A stretch of 61,961 nucleotides of DNA, filler included, from Deltaproteobacteria bacterium (GTDB lineage: Bacteria > CG2-30-53-67): the NCBI GenBank assembly GCA_013151235.1. It is 3 parts of 3 records of this genome, joined end to end, with 100 filler letters (N's around TTAATTAATTAA, not from the genome) between each part and the next. Parts side by side here need not be neighbours in the genome. Positions count along the whole stretch, not along the records: positions 47,881 to 61,961 come from JAADIO010000070.1; 2 more parts are not named here. One strand, given 5' to 3'. The notes beneath the pieces were generated by a model. It had not been told where the DNA came from, did not search any database, and saw only the letters and a list, made by a program, of their open reading frames with translations. Position 1 is the first letter of the stretch. Each line of letters begins with the position of its first letter. A program made the position numbers and the translations under genes. Positions 5,643-59,941 of the stretch are shown here, in pieces.

Positions 5643-7697
5643 TCACCGCATCGCCACCAGCGGCGCAATTACGAGGGAAACAATGGACATGAGCTTGATC
5701 AGGATATTCATGGCCGGACCCGAGGTATCCTTGAAGGGATCGCCGATGGTGTCGCCTACGACGGCAGCTTTGTGCGCATCGGAGCCCTTGCCGCCGAGAT
5801 GACCCTGCTCAATATATTTCTTGGCATTGTCCCAGGCACCGCCGCCGTTCCCCATGAAAAGGGCCATGAGGACCCCGGCCACGGTGGCACCGGCAAGCAT
5901 TCCACCCAGAGCCTCCGGCCCGAGGATGAACCCGACGAGGATCGGGGAGATGACGGCAAAAAGACCCGGCATGACCATTTCCTTAATGGCGGCGGCGGTA
6001 CTGATATCGACACACTTCTTGGCATCCGGCTTGACCCCTTCCTTCCCTTCGAGAAGTCCCGGGATCTCCTTGAACTGGCGACGGATCTCCGTTACCATTT
6101 CCATGGCGGCCTTCCCAACGGAGGTCATGGTCATGGCCGCAACGAGGAAGGGAAGGATCCCACCGATGAGAAGTCCGATCACCACCATCGGGTGTGTAAC
6201 GATAATCTGCATTTTGGGCAGATGATTTGTCAAGAGGGTATGATTGACGGTCTGTGAGTATGCGGTAAAAAGAGCTAGGGCCGTCAAAGCGGCGGAGCCG
6301 ATGGCAAACCCCTTCCCGATGGCGGCGGTGGTATTGCCGAGGGCATCGAGTTCATCGGTGATCTTCCGCGTATCTTCACCTAATTCCGCCATTTCCGAAA
6401 TCCCGCCGGCGTTGTCGGCCACCGGGCCGTAAGCATCAACGGACATGGTGATTCCGACGGTCGCCAGCATTCCTACCGCCGAGATCCCGATCCCGTAGAG
6501 GCCGGCATATTTGTTCCCGATGTAGATGGCCAGGGCGATGATAAGAACGGGGATCGCCGTACTCTCCAGTCCTACAGCAAGGCCGGTGATCACGTTGGTG
6601 GCCGCTCCGGTCTTGCTGGCCTCGGCGATCCGGCGGATCGGGCCGGCGGCGGTGTAGTATTCCGTTACCAATCCGATGGCAATCCCGGCAATCGTCCCGG
6701 CGAGAACGGCCCAGAAGACATCTTGATTGACCCCCACCGGGTTGAGGATCACATAAGTTCCCGCAAGGAAAAGACCCGCAGCAATAAATGTGGAGTAGCG
6801 AAGGGCCGCCGCCGGATTCCAGCTCTTCAAAATCTTCATGGAGAGGATCCCGATAAGGGAGGCGATGAGGCCCGTCATGGCCAGGATGATGGGGAGGGCC
6901 ATGTAGCTCAATTTGGTCGTCTCCGTGATCATGGCGATGGTGACGCCGCTGGTTGCGGCAATGGCGATGGTGGCAATGATGGAGCCGACATAGGACTCGA
7001 AAATGTCGGCGCCGAGCCCGGCCACGTCGCCCACGTTGTCGCCCACGTTGTCGGCGATCACACCGGGGTTTCTCGGGTCGTCTTCGGGAATTCCCGCCTC
7101 GATCTTTCCGACCAGGTCGGCGCCGACGTCGGCCGACTTCGTATAGATCCCGCCGCCCACACGGGCGAAGAGGGCAATGGAACTGGCCCCCATGGCGAAG
7201 CCGTTGATGTTGGCGATCCCCGATGCATCACCTTTGCTGAAGACGTAGTAGGCAATCCCGATTCCAATCAGCCCCAGACTCGCGACGGAAAGACCCATGA
7301 CGGCGCCTCCGGAAAATGCGGTGGAAAGCGCCGGTCCGTGATCCGGCTTGTTCGCTTCCGCTGCCTGTGCCGTACGCACGTTGGCCATGGTGGCGGCGTT
7401 CATCCCGAAGTATCCGGCAAGAATAGAGCATAATGCCCCGCCGAGGAAGGCAATCGCCGTCGCAAGGGTCACTTTCCAAGCCAAAAGGGCAAACACAATA
7501 ATGATAAAGATGGCGAGGACCTTGTACATCCGGAACAGAAAGGTCAGCGCCCCTTCGTGAATCTGGTCCGCAATATCACGCATCCGATCGGTACCAACAG
7601 GCTGCTTCTTCAACGCACCGAAGATAAAAAAGGCGACAATCAGCCCGACGGCTCCGATAAGGGGTGCATAGGTTGCATTCAATACTGCATTCAACAT
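5643..7697 (-). CDS. hppA: Membrane-bound pyrophosphatase, K+-dependent type (probably Na+-translocating)
   Basis: Motifs [35 protein letters not shown] and [16 protein letters not shown] has Ala at the K+-dependence position. Confidence 0.95.
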
Positions 7698-25964: not shown

Positions 25965-26328
25965 GTCCCAAGCAGATCGGGTAATCGCTCCGGTTTTCCG
26001 GAGAGGAAAGTCCGGGCACCACAGGGCAGGATGCTTCCTAACGGGAAGTCCCGGTGACGGGCAGGAAAGTGCCACAGAAAAGACACAGCCCCGGGAATCC
26101 CGGGGTAAAGGTGAAATGGCGGGGTAAGAGCCCACCAGTGTCCGGGTGACCGGGCAGCTCGGCAAACCCCATCCGGTGCAAGGCCAAATAGGGAGGCGTT
26201 TGAGGACGGCCCGTCCGAAGCCTCCGGGTCAGGTCGCTTGACCCCGGCGGTGACGTCGGGGCTAGATGAATGATTACCGTCCCGTCGCAGACGGGATACA
26301 GAACCCGGCTTATAGGTCTGCTTGGGAC
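25965..26328 (+). ncRNA. rnpB: RNase P RNA (type A)
   Basis: GAGGAAAGTCCGGGC, GGAAAGTGCCACAGAAAA, GGTAAGAGCCCACC, GGCAAACCCC, ACAGAACCCGGCTTAT. P1 pairing gtcccaagcaga/tctgcttgggac. Confidence 0.97.
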
Positions 26329-37761: not shown

Positions 37762-37855
37762 TCTCTCCGGCAGCCCCTCTACCGTAACCTTTCGGTCCCA
37801 GGCAGGTAGCTTTGCGCCCTGCACCTTTCGGAGCAGGTTGCCATTGTCACGAAAC
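37762..37855 (-). promoter_or_regulatory. Cyclic di-GMP-I (GEMM-I) riboswitch aptamer
   Basis: Minus strand GGCAA-cctgc-tccGAAAgg-tgcagg-GCGCAAAGC-tacc...ggtag-AGGGGCTGCCG matches the GEMM-I architecture (GNRA-capped P2, CGCAAAG junction, GGGYYRCCG end). Confidence 0.85.
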
Positions 37856-48527: not shown

Positions 48528-50702
48528 TCAGTGAACAATCTCGGAGAGTTTTTGCAGGACCTGCGGGTCGAAATGGACGTTGGCGAGGTTTTGCATTTCT
48601 TGCAGGGCGGCTTTTTCGGAGAAGGGCTTCCGCCATGCCCGATTGGAAGTCATGGAGACGAAGGTGTCTGCAACGCAAAGGATTCGGGCCGGCAGGGGGA
48701 TCTGGTCCCCTACCAGACCGTAGGGGTAACCGGATCCGTTTAATTTTTCATGATGTTGCAGGACCGTATTTTTGACCTCTTCTTCCTCGGTCGCCAGGGC
48801 ATCCAGGATCTTCCAGCTGAAGAAGGGATGGCGCCGGATGATGGCGGTCTCCTCTTCGGAGAGCTTCCCTTTTTTATTGTACAGTTCACTCCGGATAGCG
48901 ATCTTTCCGATATCATGCAGCCGGGCGGAGAGGATGAGCCTTTCGGTCTCCTGTGCTGTCAGCTTCATCCTTTTTGCAAGATTTTCCGTATACCGGGCAA
49001 CACGCTCAGAATGGCCGTTGTGGAATGTGTCCTTGGCTTCCAATACCATGGCCAGCGAAGCAAGCGCTGTTTTAGAGAATCTGTTCTGAATTTCTTCGAA
49101 GCGGAGCCCTTCCTTGAGAAAATCAGTCAGGTGAGCACTTAATGGGAGGATTTTCCGTAAGTCCTCTTCCGTGAAGGTTCCTCCGTCCGTTTTGTTTGAG
49201 AGGTGAATCACCCCCAGAGTTTTCCCATCCATCCGCAGGGGGATCGACAGGAAAGATCCGTTTTTGTAGTCTTTGTAAAGATTCTTGTGAACGGCGGGGA
49301 TGGATTCTATGGTTTCCGCCACAACCGGTTTTCCTCCTGCAGCAACCCAGCCGGTCACTGTTTTGTCCGCCGGAACCCGGGTATTCTTAATCAATTCGGT
49401 GTAGTTCCCGAAACCGCAGGCCGCCCGGATAACAAACTGGCCGGTGCCGGGTTCCGCAAGGAGGAGGGAGCCTTTCTCTGCATGGAGGGTCTCCATGGCG
49501 ACTTCCACAATCAGCTCAATCAGTCGTCCCATATTGAAAACGGAATGAATTGTGCGGGTGACCCGGTTTAAATCGAGTTGCTGTGTAAGCGCCTCGGGTT
49601 CCGCTGCACGAGGATCCTGTTGCGGATATTGGGTGACCTGGTCCCCCCCCTGCTCCCGGGCGGTCTGCAGGGCCTCTTCCATGGAATGAATCAGGGCCAT
49701 CTTGTCCTTCGCATCAAAGGGAAAGGTAACCAACCCCGCACTGATGCTGATCCGTACGGATCGCTCTCCCGTTTCATCCTGAAAGAGGTGACGACTGATG
49801 GTTTCCCGCAGCCGGTCGGCGAAAACCAATCCGCCCTTCCGGTCGGTTTCCGTCAGGATCAAAGCAAATCGATCTTCGCCGTACCGGCAGACGGTATCGA
49901 TCTGCCGGATCTGATCCATAAGTATGGTGCTGATTTCACGGAGTGTTTGTTCACCTTTGAGATGTCCACACTGCCTGACATATTCGTCCCAATGGTCCAT
50001 TTCCATCAGGAGGAGGGACATGGGATTTTTCCGACGTTTCGCTCGTCCGATCTCCCGGTCCAATTGTTCATGGAACTGCAGGAGATTTGCCTGTCCCGGA
50101 AGGTTGTGCAGGGGAACAGCGGTGTCTTCCTGCCCATTGGTTTCATAATCCCGGAAGAGTGCTTCGGACTGTATCATGAGCAGCCAGAGGAGTTTTGCGG
50201 CATCTTCCGAAAAGGAATTCGTTTCCTTGCTGAAGAGTTGCAGGGTTCCGATAATGTTGTTGCTTGCATAGATCGGCACGGAGATCATCGAGGCGGCATC
50301 GGCATAAGTCAGGCACCGGTTCACTAAGTCGTCGCTGCCGCAGGGAACAAAGAAGGTCTTCCCGCTCTGCATACACCATTCTACAAAAAGGTTCCCCTGT
50401 GTCAGGGGTCCTGCAATCTCCTGAGAAAATCCTCGAATAATGAAGGGTCTGACCATATCGAGGTCGTTGTTCCGCAGGTAGAGCAGGGCCCGGTCATAGG
50501 GGATCATTTCGCTGACCAGGTCACAAAGAACATGCAGGGAAACCTTGAACTCCATGTTCAGGTTGGAGATCATGCCCGCCTTCAGCAGGATGTTGATCTC
50601 CTGGAATTTTCTGGAAGCAAAGTCCTGACTGATTTCCGGGGAGATGTCGAGCATATATTTCCGGGCAATCGGATCTTTGATAAATCGTCCGGTGTCAGAC
50701 AT
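48528..50702 (-). CDS. GAF - degenerate GGDEF - GAF - HD-GYP cyclic-dinucleotide signalling protein
   Basis: Two GAF domains. GGDEF domain has RQID and YGEDRF. HD-GYP domain has GHSERV, LHDIGK, HHEKLNGSGYP and VAD. Confidence 0.9.
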   Translation of the reverse strand: MSDTGRFIKDPIARKYMLDISPEISQDFASRKFQEINILLKAGMISNLNMEFKVSLHVLCDLVSEMIPYDRALLYLRNNDLDMVRPFIIRGFSQEIAGPLTQGNLFVEWCMQSGKTFFVPCGSDDLVNRCLTYADAASMISVPIYASNNIIGTLQLFSKETNSFSEDAAKLLWLLMIQSEALFRDYETNGQEDTAVPLHNLPGQANLLQFHEQLDREIGRAKRRKNPMSLLLMEMDHWDEYVRQCGHLKGEQTLREISTILMDQIRQIDTVCRYGEDRFALILTETDRKGGLVFADRLRETISRHLFQDETGERSVRISISAGLVTFPFDAKDKMALIHSMEEALQTAREQGGDQVTQYPQQDPRAAEPEALTQQLDLNRVTRTIHSVFNMGRLIELIVEVAMETLHAEKGSLLLAEPGTGQFVIRAACGFGNYTELIKNTRVPADKTVTGWVAAGGKPVVAETIESIPAVHKNLYKDYKNGSFLSIPLRMDGKTLGVIHLSNKTDGGTFTEEDLRKILPLSAHLTDFLKEGLRFEEIQNRFSKTALASLAMVLEAKDTFHNGHSERVARYTENLAKRMKLTAQETERLILSARLHDIGKIAIRSELYNKKGKLSEEETAIIRRHPFFSWKILDALATEEEEVKNTVLQHHEKLNGSGYPYGLVGDQIPLPARILCVADTFVSMTSNRAWRKPFSEKAALQEMQNLANVHFDPQVLQKLSEIVH

Positions 50703-50940: not shown

Positions 50941-50956
50941 AGCAAAAGCCGTGCCA
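50941..50956 (-). promoter_or_regulatory. sigma54 promoter of the HD-GYP gene
   Basis: Minus strand TGGCACGGCTTTTGCT matches the consensus TGGCAC-N5-TTGC. Confidence 0.8.
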
Positions 50957-51268
50957 AAGGCTGCGGCCCGGGTTTTTACTGCCCCTCCTCTTTTCAGTAT
51001 CGAACGGCAGCCTTTGTATCACAAGGAGTTATACGGAATCTGTTCGCGAATCTTCTATCCGGATTCATGATCTTTCATTTCTTCGGCGGGGTGACAGTGT
51101 GTAAAAGTTTACAGAAAAAAGGAAAAACTTTTCACTTATTAGGTGATTTTTTTCCCATAGTGCAAGATGCGGTACTTTTGAAAAGAGTGGGGTGATGCCG
51201 TTGGAGGGGGAAGCCTTGCTCCGAAAACATGATGCAATAGAATTCCGGAAAGCAGTATGAAAACAAAT

Positions 51269-51357
51269 AAAAAGGCGTCCACAAATTTCGGGACGCCTTT
51301 TGGGAATGACATCATGGGGGGATGATGTCAGACGCTTGTTTTCTTTTCATTACCGAT
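51269..51357 (-). ncRNA. Candidate sigma54-dependent sRNA 1
   Basis: Follows the sigma54 motif. Contains a 9-bp stem tgacatcat/atgatgtca with a CCCCCC loop and ends in the terminator ggcgtcc/ggacgcc plus T5. Confidence 0.6.
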
Positions 51358-51367
51358 ACATAGACGA

Positions 51368-51383
51368 AGCAATCAACATGCCA
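51368..51383 (-). promoter_or_regulatory. sigma54 promoter
   Basis: Minus strand TGGCATGTTGATTGCT. Confidence 0.7.
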
Positions 51384-51687
51384 ATTCACCTGATGTCGGT
51401 TAAATGATCCATAACCTATTGAAACAAAAGGTGTAATCTTGTTGCAGGTCCTGTTTTTCTCGGGACTGGCCTGGAAGCAATTGGGACAAATCACCACCAT
51501 GCAAGAAGGCTATATATTAATAAATGTAATGATTCTAATAAGTTAAGCTACTGTGGCAAAATTGTCTCGCGGTGCGTCATTCCGCACAGCCTCAGGTCTT
51601 GCACGGTGTCGGCAAGTCTCATGCTCCTGCCGGTGGAGCGTTACGGAAAATACGTGACATCCTTTCCGGGGTATGGTAATAATCTGA

Positions 51688-54067: not shown

Positions 54068-55276
54068 TCAGGGCAGCTCATAGATCAACAGGCGGGTTTT
54101 TTGCCGGAAAGGAATCATTCCCTCCCGGAGGAAGAGGATCAGATCCCTTTTCCCGTTGTTATCGATATCTCCCACGGCCTGGTCGATAATTTTTCCGAAG
54201 ATCGGCTGGGTATCCCAGTACTCCCTGACCTGACCGTTGGCCAGGACAAGATCGGCTACGCTCTCCCGGGTCAACAGACTCCTGATGAGCCGGACATTCA
54301 GGATCGGCCGCTGCAGGATCAGGAGTAACTCATCCCGGCCGTCCTGATCGTAGTCACCGGAAAGCATGCGATTGGGAATCTTCAATTTTTTCTTCAGCGT
54401 CCCCCCTGCGGGATTTTGCACACGGATCTTGTATGTGTGAAAATCGGGAAGTCTGAAAGCATCGATTTTTGTGATCTCCCGCAGGTCGGGGGCATAGAAG
54501 CGGAGTTGCCCCGTTCCGGAGAGGCTGTAATAGGCGGAGCCGTCGGCATCCCGTGAATAGTGGCTTCCCGCAGCATAGAGAGCCGCTCCGGGCGGGAAAT
54601 TCAGCGGTCCTGCCCGCTGGATCCGTCCTCCCTCCCAGTGGTAGCGGCCGATCTTGTCCCGGCCCGGGGTAAAAGACTGTCCCGCCAGGAAAGGATGATC
54701 TTCCGGATCCCGAAGGATCTGCAGATAGACGCCGGGAATGACCGCCCTCCGAAAGTGTTTCTCCTGAAAGGTCAGGATACCGGAGAAGAGTTGATGGTTC
54801 CGAATTCCCCGGTAAAGGATTTCATCCCTGCCGTCGCAGTTAAGATCACCTGCGTCGAGGGAGAGGTAACGGATCTTCCTGTTATCTTGGTTGACGGCAT
54901 CGAGGGGAGATTCGGCGTCTTTATGTTTCCAGATCCGGAAGGAAAAGAAACCCTTTTTCTCCTGCTCTTTCGTGCCGGGAGTTAGGAACCGTCCGTATTT
55001 CCACTGTACGATACGAAGGATCCTTCCATCCGTGGTGATCAGTTCGTTTTCCCCATCCCCGTCGAGATCTCCGATGACCGCGGAGCGGACCGGGAAAGGG
55101 AGCACTTTTTCCTTCCACACTTTCTGCATAACCTGTTTCCGGATATAGGTCGGGATGACGGCCGGGAAGTCGTTTTTCTTCACGGTGTTCCCTGCGGCAT
55201 GCGCGACGACCGGCACCGGGAACCGGAGCAGGGGAAAGAGGCCGAGGAGGACAAGGATCAGCAGGATACGTTTCAT
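54068..55276 (-). CDS. Exported FG-GAP/VCBS-repeat protein
   Basis: Signal peptide ending AHA, and GDLDGDGENE, GDLNCDGRDE, GDYDQDGRDE, GDIDNNGKRD. Confidence 0.85.
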   Translation of the reverse strand: MKRILLILVLLGLFPLLRFPVPVVAHAAGNTVKKNDFPAVIPTYIRKQVMQKVWKEKVLPFPVRSAVIGDLDGDGENELITTDGRILRIVQWKYGRFLTPGTKEQEKKGFFSFRIWKHKDAESPLDAVNQDNRKIRYLSLDAGDLNCDGRDEILYRGIRNHQLFSGILTFQEKHFRRAVIPGVYLQILRDPEDHPFLAGQSFTPGRDKIGRYHWEGGRIQRAGPLNFPPGAALYAAGSHYSRDADGSAYYSLSGTGQLRFYAPDLREITKIDAFRLPDFHTYKIRVQNPAGGTLKKKLKIPNRMLSGDYDQDGRDELLLILQRPILNVRLIRSLLTRESVADLVLANGQVREYWDTQPIFGKIIDQAVGDIDNNGKRDLILFLREGMIPFRQKTRLLIYELP

Positions 55277-57474
55277 GGAGACTCCCTCAGGGTTTCGGTT
55301 CGATTCTCAGTCGTTTCCCCCTGCCGTATTGAAAGATCACTCATTTCCATGTTGAGTTGCAGGAGGGCTTCTTCCCCCGGGGCCAGACGCATTTCCCAGT
55401 GCAGAAGAAGGCAGGAACCCTGATAGATTTTCTCAAAGCCTCCTTCCGACTGGGAGACGGTTTCGATCGGAAAGCGCCAAAGGCCGGCCGGTTGCCGTGC
55501 AGTGATCCCCCACCGAATGCCGCTCCATTCATCCGTCAGGACGAGGCGTTCCACTCCGTCCATCGCTCCCGTTCCGGCAAGATGAGGGGGAACCGGTTTC
55601 TCCCCGTTGATCCGGTAGTAACGGTCCGGGGCATTGCCGGCCAGCAGGGTGATGTTGAATTCAATCCCGAAGCGGCCGGTAAGATCGTCCGGTCCCGTGT
55701 TGCGGATGCTGTAATCGATTGTCACCGACGAAACCCCGGCGGTTGCGTGGATGGTTTTTGTCACCCGGACTGTTTTCGGCCTCCCGGCCCCCTGCGCGGA
55801 ACGGACGGCGCCTTTCCGGGTCAGCGAGAGACCGGTCCCCTTCCCGGTGGTCGCGAGGGAGGCGGTGTAGGCTCCGGCTACGAAGTCTCCCTCCTCATCG
55901 TATTTCCCTTGCTGAAAGGCCTCCATGGATGTTTTGTCCGGGAAGAAATGGTCGATCAGGGAATGTCGGGGATAGGGATCATAAACAATCCGTTCCGCCA
56001 GTCCTTCTTCTTTCGCCATGACCTGATGATGAATGGTCTGCACACCCCCCTCCTGCGGAGCGGTGAGGGCCCGGCTGATCTCCTGATGATAAAATTCAGG
56101 GATCCGGGTCAGGGTATCCTGCAGGTTGAAGGAGCGGGGTTTGAAGTCGAGGCCGATGAGTGTGCCGCCCTGGTGGGGGGCGAAGATCATCGTATAGCTT
56201 TCCGAGTTCAGAATCATCTCTTCAGCGCCGTCTTTGTCGAGATCGGCATGAACGGTGTCCAGCCAGACCGACCGGCCGTCATGCAGGAGGGTGTCGGCGA
56301 TGGCCTCGGCCCGGATCAGGTGACGGTAGATGCCGGCACGCAGGTGGGGCAGGTAGAGCCCGCCGAAGACACCGTGCCAGTAGGCATCGTTGCACTGTCC
56401 CTTCCACAGTTCATTGAGGGCGGTCTCTTTCTCCTTTCCGTCAGGGAGGTGGTGAACCTTGTCGCTGACAAAAAGCATCTTTTTGTGCATCCGGTTGCTC
56501 TCCGGATATTTGGAAAAGAAGTTTCGCCAGAAACCACCGGCCAGGAAGGGGCGGGCCATTTCTTCCAGACCGGCTTCGGCGAGCCGATCTTTCAAGTGCC
56601 GGAACTCTTCCGAAGCGTTCTGCAGCAGCGACCATTCGGCCATTTCCATATAGGAAGAGGTGGGAAGATAGATCCGTCCTCGGGGGGCGTGGCTTTGAAG
56701 GACCTCGGAGAAGAGTTTCGGCTCAATCCAGTCCCGGTTTTCGTCCAGGGCCTCGAAAAAGCGGGAGAGCCAGCCTTCCTCGTAGACGGAATGATAGGTC
56801 CCGGGCCATACGCCGAACTTTTCTCCATCGTCTCCCATAATCGCAAGCGGGGTCTCCGAGGTATTCCGCATTTCGTCAAGGTAGGCGAGGGTTTCTTCCA
56901 CCGGGTGGAAAGGAATCAGGTAGCGCAGGCGTTCGCTGCCGGGAAAGACATTCAGGATCTTTCCCTTTTCTTCCGTGATGTAATATCCGTGAAGGGACTC
57001 CCCTCGAAGACCGGCCATGATAAAATGGTGATCATCGATGACGATATACTTTGCCCCGGCGTTATGGAGCGATTCCGCCAGGTGGGGCTCCCAGACCCGT
57101 TCCGCCAGCCACATCCCCTTCGGTTCGGTCCGAAAGGTCTCCCGGAGAAAAGAGGTCAGCTTGCTCATCTGTCCCTGTTTGTCCGATTCATAGAGCGTGG
57201 TCAGGATCGGTTCGTAAAACCCTCCGGACATGAGTTCGACCTGATTTTTTCCCACCAAACTGCAAAGTTCTTTGATGAATTCCGGATGGTTTTCCTTCAG
57301 CCATTCCAAAAGGAAACCGGAATAGTGGAGAGTCACACGTATATGGGGGTGTTCCGTCAGTGCGCGGGCGAAGGGAAGATAAGCTTTTTGGTAAGAGGTT
57401 TCCAGTACCTGGGAGAAGTTGTCTACCGGTTGATGATTGTGGATTGCAAGAAGGAGTGTAACCGGTTTTGCCAT
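55273..57474 (-). CDS. GH57 alpha-amylase/4-alpha-glucanotransferase (DUF1925/DUF1926)
   Basis: HNHQP, GGFYEPIL, WLAERVW, DDGEKFG.WP, QCNDAYWHG.FGGLY, SQSEGGFE.IYQG. Confidence 0.93.
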   Translation of the reverse strand: MAKPVTLLLAIHNHQPVDNFSQVLETSYQKAYLPFARALTEHPHIRVTLHYSGFLLEWLKENHPEFIKELCSLVGKNQVELMSGGFYEPILTTLYESDKQGQMSKLTSFLRETFRTEPKGMWLAERVWEPHLAESLHNAGAKYIVIDDHHFIMAGLRGESLHGYYITEEKGKILNVFPGSERLRYLIPFHPVEETLAYLDEMRNTSETPLAIMGDDGEKFGVWPGTYHSVYEEGWLSRFFEALDENRDWIEPKLFSEVLQSHAPRGRIYLPTSSYMEMAEWSLLQNASEEFRHLKDRLAEAGLEEMARPFLAGGFWRNFFSKYPESNRMHKKMLFVSDKVHHLPDGKEKETALNELWKGQCNDAYWHGVFGGLYLPHLRAGIYRHLIRAEAIADTLLHDGRSVWLDTVHADLDKDGAEEMILNSESYTMIFAPHQGGTLIGLDFKPRSFNLQDTLTRIPEFYHQEISRALTAPQEGGVQTIHHQVMAKEEGLAERIVYDPYPRHSLIDHFFPDKTSMEAFQQGKYDEEGDFVAGAYTASLATTGKGTGLSLTRKGAVRSAQGAGRPKTVRVTKTIHATAGVSSVTIDYSIRNTGPDDLTGRFGIEFNITLLAGNAPDRYYRINGEKPVPPHLAGTGAMDGVERLVLTDEWSGIRWGITARQPAGLWRFPIETVSQSEGGFEKIYQGSCLLLHWEMRLAPGEEALLQLNMEMSDLSIRQGETTENRTETLRESP

Positions 57475-57567
57475 GCATATTTCTCCGGGGATCTTTGAAA
57501 GTCGTTGCGATTATAGACAAAGAGCTGATCGAAAGCAACCTTTGTCAGGATCGAAAGCGCAAAAAAC

Positions 57568-57784
57568 TGTAACGACTCAGGTTGCTTCTATTTTTCGGCA
57601 GGACAAGGCGTGAGGAGCGCAAAACCGGAGGCGTATTTTTATACGTTGAGGATTTGAGCACCGGAACACCCCAAGATCCCTTATTCCTCAGAACCGCGGA
57701 AAGCGGCAAAGATAAATCTCAGGCGGGGCACGCCGAAGGCGTAACCAGTCATGCGGGAAAAGAGGGGTGACCTGAGTCGTTACA
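57568..57784. mobile_element. MITE family B (TGT...ACA ends), 6-bp TSD AAAAAC
   Basis: Perfect 15-bp inverted repeats tgtaacgactcaggt/acctgagtcgttaca, flanked by aaaaac at 57562-67 and 57785-90. 217 bp, no transposase. Confidence 0.85.
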
Positions 57785-57881
57785 AAAAACTGACCGGCCC
57801 GAGAGCCGGTCAGTTCAAGAAAGGAGGACAGACTTAATTAAGCGGCCTGTTAAAAGGAAACTTAATTAAGGTGCTTTGTAT
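57784..57881 (-). ncRNA. Candidate sigma54-dependent sRNA 2
   Basis: Follows the sigma54 motif. cttaattaag occurs twice and can pair. CCUCCUU lies just before the terminator aactgaccggc/gccggtcagtt plus a U-tract. Confidence 0.6.
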
Positions 57882-57891
57882 ATAGTTGCAC

Positions 57892-57907
57892 TGCAATCTG
57901 TGTGCCG
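57892..57907 (-). promoter_or_regulatory. sigma54 promoter
   Basis: Minus strand CGGCACACAGATTGCA (GG-N10-GC). Confidence 0.7.
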
Positions 57908-58124
57908 AATCACTGGATATGGATAAGTCATTGAATACATGTGGTTTTGCGACTGTTCTGAAAGTATGCCCGGTTCCCGTTTTGTCCATTTTTATCCATG
58001 TTTTCTTTCGGGTTCCATCTCCTGTCCGGGAAAGCGGTGCAGGACAAGGGCTGAGCGCTTGTGCAGAAAAGAACAGGGCAAAGTGCAATTTTGCACAAGA
58101 AGATTTCTCTCGGTGATGGAATAT

Positions 58125-59765
<1,641 letters not shown>

Positions 59766-59786
59766 GGTGCAACCTCCTGCGAACAA

Positions 59787-59815
59787 ATTATAGACAGGGA
59801 AGGAAAAAAGATCAA
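59787..59815 (-). promoter_or_regulatory. sigma70 promoter of hflX
   Basis: TTGATC-17-TATAAT on the minus strand. Confidence 0.7.
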
Positions 59816-59941
59816 GGCGGACCTTGCGACAATCGGTCGCTGCTTGCCGCAAGATTCGGAAAGAAATATTTGCCTCTCCTTCCGCTTGCGTGGTAATTTA
59901 GATTTCGCAGAAAATGGTAGAGGCTTTCAGGAAAGAGGACA

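Follow-up and report, generated by a model that had tools for sequence, protein, structure and literature searches.

Does the intergenic DNA that follows hflX in a little-known uncultured bacterial lineage encode a regulatory RNA, and, if it does, how would that RNA be switched on and what would it act upon? We addressed this question in a stretch of 61,961 nucleotides (hereafter the window) from the Deltaproteobacteria bacterium assembly GCA_013151235.1, placed by GTDB in CG2-30-53-67. An earlier note, made from the sequence alone, had proposed that the window carries a sigma54-driven small RNA (sRNA) of about 98 nucleotides (nt) with an anti-Shine-Dalgarno (anti-SD) sequence. Comparison with related sequences indicates that the locus is very probably a real, conserved and previously undescribed sigma54-type sRNA gene. 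It forms a complete and compact module, consisting of a putative enhancer, a site like those of integration host factor (IHF), a sigma54 promoter, a seed and a terminator, in genomes without Hfq and ProQ. All coordinates of the module are window positions on the minus strand, and the features are collected in Table 1.

Conservation of the promoter, the fold and the seed

Relatives were collected through the similarity of their HflX proteins. The closest are metagenome-assembled genomes with NCBI titles reading Nitrospirota or Nitrospirae, two of them labelled CG2-30-53-67, and their HflX proteins are 83%, 80% and 66-69% identical to that of the window. Genome counts refer to a phylum sample of 13 species genomes, and counts out of ten refer to ten distinct homologous sequences or loci. 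We built a covariance model from six sequences and ran it on the collected sources, on whole genomes and on metagenome contigs. Six of the 81 sources matched at 109-119 bits; the remaining matches were either weak and on the opposite strand of the palindromic hairpins or, for locus L037, at E = 0.3. Whole-genome searches found exactly one copy in each of 8 of the 13 phylum genomes, and scores across the ten sequences range from 74 to 119 bits. The five genomes without the sRNA are a deep sister group, with FtsZ identities of 56-58% as against 80-95% inside the sRNA-bearing group. A metagenome scan with the 18-nt seed returned 33 contigs, five of which match the RNA model: a new variant (L144) and four contigs scoring the same as the sequence of locus L087. 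The other 28 gave no match to the model and were set aside as chance occurrences. The full module thus stays together, once per genome, in 8 of the 13 species genomes, and one additional metagenome variant has it too. With blastn, the intergenic module aligned in L001 and L002 from window position 58097 to 57784 or 57776, that is, from the first dyad to the U-tract, where similarity ends; in L004, L005 and L006 only the body of the RNA was found.

The earlier note had read a sigma54 motif with GG-N10-GC at 57907-57892 and a transcription start near 57881. The motif is there: for the sigma54 pattern TGGCAC-N5-TTGCW the promoter of the window has CGGCAC-N5-TTGCA, and its GC at -12 puts the inferred +1 near 57881. 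The note had also staked its proposal on the conservation of this spacing in relatives, and GGCA[CT]-N5-TTGC proved invariant in all ten sequences among variable flanks, with the fuller TGGCA[CT] in seven relatives. Upstream, the IHF-like site and the dyad that it had described as an enhancer layout lie where it placed them, and the layout is conserved in all ten. Specifically, the pattern A-TCAA-N4/5-TA of the IHF-like site is kept in every sequence about 27 nt upstream of the GG; L005 reads AATCAATGTGTTA, and the IHF consensus is WATCAANNNNTTR. Near -200 all ten sequences have two 14-bp dyads, 7-8 bp apart, which jointly make up an imperfect palindrome of about 36 bp that is nearly perfect in locus L088; the first dyad keeps the consensus GYDC-WAAAWD-GNWC in 10 of 10. 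A further block near -110 aligns in all sequences and has nine positions invariant among nine of them, the ten-sequence alignment shifting three rows by one base. All ten sequences retain promoter, IHF-like site, -110 block and both dyads, set among spacers that vary. We considered a small open reading frame (ORF), either within the -110 block or within the RNA, and rejected it: relatives have AAG or TTG in place of the ATG of the block, and the pattern of conservation is not that of codons.

A composite pattern of the two dyads occurs once in each sRNA-bearing genome, always at the sRNA gene (8 of 8), and neither in the five genomes without the sRNA nor for a reversed control. Because the pattern was derived from these same sites, its uniqueness shows only that no second full copy is present. 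A search for a wider regulon with this pattern, taken from those sites, gave no site beyond the sRNA gene.

The predicted folding energy of the 98-nt RNA is -36.3 kcal/mol (z = -7.0), which none of 200 shuffled sequences attains. In the predicted fold an unpaired stretch separates a 5' hairpin from the terminator hairpin. The two palindromes that had been expected to form a 5' stem, copies of CTTAATTAAG at 57870-57861 and 57842-57833, are both present and pair with each other in this fold. Likewise, the anti-SD, CCTCCTT at 57827-57821, is present, unpaired and inside the seed, and the terminator stem and U-tract are found as described, the closing pairs that we include in the stem taking in part of the U-tract. 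In the alignment of homologues, 99.3% of the cells of the whole fold are paired, and 11 of its 27 pairs have changed on both sides, eight of them in the terminator, a level that none of 500 shuffles reaches. The 5' hairpin has 98.5% of its cells paired and three pairs changed on both sides, and the terminator hairpin has 100% paired and eight pairs with compensatory changes. Slid controls of the same alignment pair at only 18-54%. The alignment behind these counts was fitted to the covariance model; an independent analysis of six sequences with MAFFT and RNAalifold returned the same structure with five compensatory pairs. The RNA contains no ATG and is accordingly not coding, and on the plus strand, as the earlier note held, no ATG, GTG or TTG follows the AAGGAGG.

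Between the two hairpins, the seed contains CCUCCUUUCU, a 10-nt copy of the 3' tail of 16S rRNA, which in this phylum ends in ...GGATCACCTCCTTTCTAAGGAG (...GGAUCACCUCCUUUCUAAGGAG; seven loci). Eight further invariant bases flank this core, UCUGU on its 5' side and UGA on its 3' side. The 10-nt identity raises the question of where the specificity of an anti-SD sRNA comes from. Taken together with the promoter, the conservation of seed and terminator in relatives, for which the earlier note had asked, extends to all ten sequences.

Searches of the whole window against Rfam 15 at gathering score, and at E values up to 10 over 57400-58200, found no family that matches the sRNA. The best sub-threshold scores, 24 bits for LhrC (threshold 110), 21.5 for SorX (46.6) and 19.9 for MicF (79), are noise. 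The Qrr family, which we take to be Rfam RF00378, gave no match at either setting. In the literature no sRNA or regulatory RNA from this lineage turned up, in searches that were not aimed at its RNAs beyond the lineage label and whose scope left out supplementary files.

Table 1. Features of the sRNA module, its neighbours and other elements of the window
Feature	Position	Strand	Relative to predicted +1	Remarks
Whole module	58096-57784	-		Two 14-bp dyads, conserved block, IHF-like site, GGCAY-N5-TTGC, ~98-nt RNA, hairpin and U-tract
Distal dyad 1, GTGCAAAATTGCAC	58083-58096	-	-215 to -202	Proposed enhancer-binding-protein site
Distal dyad 2, GTTCTTTTCTGCAC	58061-58074	-	-193 to -180	Inverted counterpart of dyad 1, 8 bp apart
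Conserved block, GGAnnAAAnnGnnCA	57983-57997	-	-116 to -102	Possibly a second protein site
IHF-like site, TTCAATGACTTA	57924-57935	-	-54 to -43	
Sigma54-type promoter, CGGCACACAGATTGCA	57892-57907	-	GG at -25/-24, GC at -13/-12	GG-N10-GC spacing
Predicted sRNA, ~98 nt	57784-57881	-		+1 inferred from promoter geometry; 3' end in U-tract
5' hairpin	57833-57870	-		Two CUUAAUUAAG copies paired, plus small inner stem; 14 pairs
Unpaired seed, UCUGUCCUCCUUUCUUGA, 18 nt	57815-57832	-		Invariant in 10/10; unpaired in minimum-energy and consensus folds
Intrinsic terminator	57784-57816	-		Hairpin 57816-57787, 13 pairs with closing A-U and G-U; T6 at 57789-57784
hflX	58125-59852	-		Upstream neighbour; Pfam GTP-bdg_N, GTP-bdg_M, MMR_HSR1
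GH57 alpha-amylase/4-alpha-glucanotransferase gene	55273-57474	-		Downstream neighbour; identified by Pfam
Second sigma54-type sRNA candidate	51262-51424	-		RNA 51357-51262; 6.5 kb from the first
Third sigma54-like motif, TGGCACGGCTTTTGCT	50941-50956	-		~240 nt upstream of a gene at 48528-50702
c-di-GMP-I riboswitch	37766-37852	-		Rfam, 61.2 bits
Bacterial RNase P class A RNA	25969-26328	+		Rfam, 306 bits

Proposed action, predicted targets and rival explanations

The host genomes have the machinery for a sigma54-dependent promoter. All 13 phylum genomes encode rpoN (Sigma54_DBD), and each of the five that were searched for Sigma54_activat (G001, G002, G004, G005 and G007; 2.3-3.2 Mb) has 25-35 matches; the lineage is unusually rich in sigma54-dependent regulation. 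The Pfam model of Hfq matched none of the 13 genomes, with controls that do match, and ProQ was found in none of five.

We think it likely that the product of the gene is an Hfq-independent, enhancer-dependent sRNA that acts by pairing in trans and thereby occludes ribosome-binding sites. An enhancer-binding protein would bind the two inverted dyads about 200 bp upstream, and a bend of the DNA at the IHF-like site would bring this activator to sigma54-RNA polymerase at GGCAC-N5-TTGC. Transcription would run from near 57881 to the GC-rich hairpin and U-tract, where read-through from hflX probably ends as well. The 18-mer UCUGUCCUCCUUUCUUGA, held between two hairpins and with a core mimicking the 16S 3' tail, would then pair in trans with purine-rich Shine-Dalgarno (SD) regions without the help of Hfq, keep 30S subunits off and so repress translation. 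With the start of ftsZ as the best predicted target, cell division would slow down in response to the signal that the activator senses.

The candidate targets came from complements of the seed. The 14-mer complement TCAAGAAAGGAGGA, allowing up to one mismatch, occurs 38 times in the eight sRNA-bearing genomes (the gene itself accounts for eight) compared with 13 times for the reversed control, and not at all in the five genomes without the sRNA. SD-like composition accounts for part of this excess. The matches included the ftsZ starts of G002 and G005, and the starts of FadL/TodX-type outer-membrane protein genes carry the 14-mer in G003 and G004. We then took ftsZ, which lies outside the window, from all 13 genomes and predicted its duplex with the seed. 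In six of the eight sRNA-bearing genomes the duplex at the ftsZ start has an energy of -25.5 to -31.3 kcal/mol (G007, -31.3; G004 and G006, -29.7; G001 and G002, -28.3; G005, -25.5), and in the five genomes without the sRNA the values are -14.7 to -18.9 kcal/mol. The ftsZ sites differ from one another by purine-to-purine changes opposite U residues of the seed, and pairing is retained. When the CCUCC core was kept and its flanks were shuffled, none of 1000 control seeds reached the observed sum of ftsZ energies, and the outcome was the same (0 of 1000) for G007, G004 and G008 alone, which had no part in the finding of ftsZ.

In 782 kb of G004, ftsZ ranks first among 2146 candidate translation starts (mean -11.8, standard deviation 4.2). 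Of the six non-self sites that reach -28 or lower in 169.5 kb of mixed loci, five belong to ftsZ starts, a collection in which 8 of the 20 sources are ftsZ loci by design. On these predictions the ftsZ translation start is the lead target. That it is a real target of the sRNA we regard as possible, with somewhat more doubt than confidence. If the link is true, a chromosomal sRNA with its own sigma54 promoter would couple an environmental signal to cell division.

Other strong complements of the seed lie at gene starts in the same genomes. They stand at G003:C138 (L186), G004:C1 (L182) and G006:C55 (L099), at the translation starts of two genes of the FadL/TodX family and of one ORF of 416 amino acids that has a hydrophobic N-terminus and no Pfam match. 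G004:C5:10906 (L174) and G006:C182:2031 (L173) each combine an exact 14-nt complement, TCAAGAAAGGAGGA, with a conserved mini-ORF of five codons (GTG...TGG TAA) after it. This site, at -29.3 kcal/mol, is among the best non-self sites in G004 and possibly represents a leader peptide or another target. A longer query, a 16-mer complementary to the seed's 5' half, was also tried as a source of targets and abandoned, with no enrichment and no shared orthologue.

Several results weigh against the interpretation that we favour, some of them against the gene itself and others against its proposed action. GGCAY-N5-TTGC occurs three times in the window where 0.9 occurrences are expected, and 7 of 100 shuffles reach three, which is not significant alone; a simple consensus scanner, run over 57300-58400, reported neither a terminator nor a sigma70 promoter. 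It is because of the conservation in 10 of 10 sequences and the covariation of the fold, and not of the window sequence alone, that we take the module to be more than chance. No gene for an enhancer-binding protein stands beside the sRNA: the 62-kb window holds none (no GAFTGA-type protein), and only one of 13 further loci checked (in G002) has an activator gene nearby, as a fragment. The 16-mer complement, with up to two mismatches, gave 54 hits, of which eight are at the sRNA gene, and its reversed control gave 55. As for ftsZ, it was noticed post hoc, from a pattern search in two genomes, and it pairs weakly in G008 (-18.6) and G003 (-16.2). When all sites in the 782 kb of G004 are scanned, it ranks only about 21st (-27.0), and 12 other sites are at -28 or lower; most of the best 30 sites are at no usable start, and several are in G-rich stretches. 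The duplex energies ignore the accessibility of the mRNA, and the prediction falls short of whole-genome comparative scale. Finally, a seed that copies the tail of 16S rRNA will score well with every strong extended SD, which makes specificity uncertain.

In one rival explanation the RNA is a general mimic of the 16S tail, with no specific targets, that once induced competes for all strong SD sequences or titrates a factor recognizing the 16S 3' tail; the effect would be a global damping of translation. The identity of CCUCCUUUCU to the tail at seven loci is what one would expect of such a mimic, linkage in 8 of 10 loci to hflX, a ribosome-rescue GTPase gene, would fit, and good sites are many in G004 (41 at -26 or lower in 782 kb). 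However, the eight invariant bases outside the core suggest selection beyond SD pairing, ftsZ pairs far less well once the flanks of the seed are shuffled (0 of 1000), and stoichiometric competition with ribosomes would demand very high RNA levels; we consider such a role decidedly unlikely. Alternatively, the invariant stretch could be the recognition site of a protein, the RNA serving, for example, as a sponge or a ribosome-associated RNA. At 18 nt the stretch exceeds most sRNA seeds, the arms of the 5' hairpin are conserved in sequence beyond structural need, and CsrA is encoded in four of five genomes. That the stretch is a textbook anti-SD, and that Hfq (0 of 13) and ProQ (0 of 5) are absent, makes a protein-binding role improbable in our estimation. 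A CsrA sponge of the CsrB/RsmZ type was ruled out, as the 98-nt RNA has no GGA, the motif whose repeats in loops mark such sponges.

A third explanation places the function in cis: the sigma54 promoter would serve the GH57 glycogen gene, with the hairpin as an attenuator, or the hairpin would be only the terminator of hflX next to an idle promoter-like motif. The neighbourhood lends this some weight, with GH57 downstream in eight of the nine loci whose downstream side is known and hflX upstream in 8 of 10. Moreover, hflX probably shares the terminator of the sRNA, because its stop codon is only 28 nt away from the first dyad. As regards INDEPENDENCE from neighbours, though, the module is intact without hflX upstream in L085 (a locus in G003, with an HD-domain gene there) and L087 (G008, with a divergent gene that has no Pfam match), and ahead of a gene other than GH57 in L088 (G007). 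Its persistence where hflX (two cases) or GH57 (one case) has been replaced argues that it is neither just an hflX terminator, a reading that the earlier note had allowed for as fatal to its own, nor a GH57 leader. Conservation stops at the U-tract, the spacer beyond it not being conserved, and the distance from the terminator to GH57 varies from about 110 to 380 nt among loci. GH57 has its own sigma70-like promoter, TTGCTT-N17-TATAAT at 57538-57510 (read by eye and not called by the simple scanner), and, if the sigma54 motif were idle, one would not find it unchanged in all ten sequences along with the IHF-like site and the dyads. Nor does any GH57 or hflX start pair with the seed at -24.5 or lower. 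We therefore find a purely cis role highly improbable.

The starts of GH57, hflX and ogt were examined as targets in their own right and rejected at the same threshold; in the scan of the window, ogt reached -23.4 and the H+-pyrophosphatase gene at 7697 reached -22.4.

Returning to repression in trans, a more far-reaching version makes the locus a sigma54-controlled brake on cell division. A mimic of the 16S tail, made in response to an environmental signal that a dedicated enhancer-binding protein senses, would out-compete ribosomes at the unusually long, purine-rich SD of ftsZ, and perhaps at FadL-type mRNAs, without Hfq or ProQ and alongside a second sigma54 sRNA whose C6 loop would be able to pair with GGGGG-type SDs (see below). 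We put this forward tentatively and consider it rather unlikely as a whole. Were it true, sigma54-driven riboregulation would be a major layer of control in an uncultured phylum; and if the RNA is just another anti-SD sRNA, annotation still gains a useful new RNA family.

Comparison with known systems

We compared the sRNA with four known systems. CJnc230 (FlmE) of Campylobacter jejuni is RpoN-dependent, 98 nt long and built of two stem-loops around a single-stranded anti-SD (PMC11187230); in architecture and logic it matches the sRNA of the window. The two have no detectable sequence relation, however, and the anti-SD of CJnc230 is CCUU within 12 nt, compared with an invariant stretch of 18 nt holding the full CCUCCUUUCU here. 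Unlike CJnc230, the sRNA of the window lies outside any flagellar context, and an elaborate putative enhancer is found some 200 bp upstream of it. To our knowledge, C. jejuni is without Hfq.

The action of the Qrr sRNAs depends on Hfq. In the Vibrionaceae these sRNAs have a sigma54 promoter, two upstream activator sites and a dedicated enhancer-binding protein (PMC10162802), and a putative Qrr gene is reported in opposite orientation to luxO in 20 of 21 taxa (PMC10162802). The likeness to the Qrr/LuxO system lies in the logic of the promoter, in a small RNA that ends at a terminator and in the regulation by base pairing that we propose; the dyad pattern is found here only at the sRNA gene. The earlier note had suggested an sRNA acting in the manner of Qrr, and this holds for the logic but not for the rest: no Rfam family matches, none of 13 genomes has Hfq, the sRNA is present once per genome with no activator gene adjacent, and the seed is an anti-SD between two hairpins that copies the 16S tail.

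The CiaR-dependent csRNAs of streptococci also have two stem-loops and an unpaired region, with an anti-SD thought to block the initiation of translation (PMC3091779), and they carry in addition an anti-start codon, CAU in 53 of 61 (PMC3091779). The sRNA of the window shares the two stem-loops and the unpaired anti-SD region but has no anti-start codon and no sequence match. The csRNAs, for their part, have several paralogues and are controlled by a response regulator at ordinary promoters, with no sigma54.

DicF represses the translation of ftsZ by pairing at its ribosome-binding site; it is encoded by a prophage, processed from a longer transcript and associated with Hfq. Work on this small RNA of Escherichia coli ties it to the control of cell division and discusses it together with ftsZ (PMC5069750). 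Its outcome is the same as that proposed here, and it provides a precedent for the control of cell division by an sRNA (PMC5069750). The two RNAs are unrelated in sequence, and the ftsZ link of the sRNA in the window is a prediction. The sRNA of the window is a member of none of the systems compared; it is a new family of a known kind.

Neighbouring genes and other elements of the window

The HflX protein encoded upstream of the sRNA has an N-terminal extension of about 230 amino acids before its first Pfam domain, which starts at residue 233. The extension is conserved, as matches to relatives start at query residues 2-35. No hfq gene was found upstream of hflX, where the neighbour is a divergent methylguanine methyltransferase gene. 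Downstream, between the terminator of the sRNA and the GH57 promoter, an imperfect inverted repeat of 37 nt (57568-57604 and 57748-57784; 78% complementary, with a perfect core of 14 nt) brackets about 215 bp. This stretch may be a small insertion, which would explain a spacer of 310 nt as against 166 nt in L004 and L006.

The second sigma54-type sRNA candidate consists of an IHF-like TTTCAATAGGTTA, the promoter motif TGGCATGTTGATTGCT (51383-51368), a hairpin UGACAUCAU-CCCCCC-AUGAUGUCA whose loop is C6, and a terminator ending in a U-tract. Its folding energy is -28.7 kcal/mol (z = -4.3), and 6 of the 13 genomes have it. Among the aligned sequences the promoter is kept in six of seven and the hairpin in seven of seven, and differences in the terminator are paired changes. 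The contig that carries the first sRNA in G004 and G006 also carries this candidate, about 8.6 kb away.

A c-di-GMP-I riboswitch and the bacterial RNase P class A RNA were recognized elsewhere in the window. The third sigma54-like motif precedes a gene for a GGDEF-GAF-HD (HD_5) protein of 724 amino acids.

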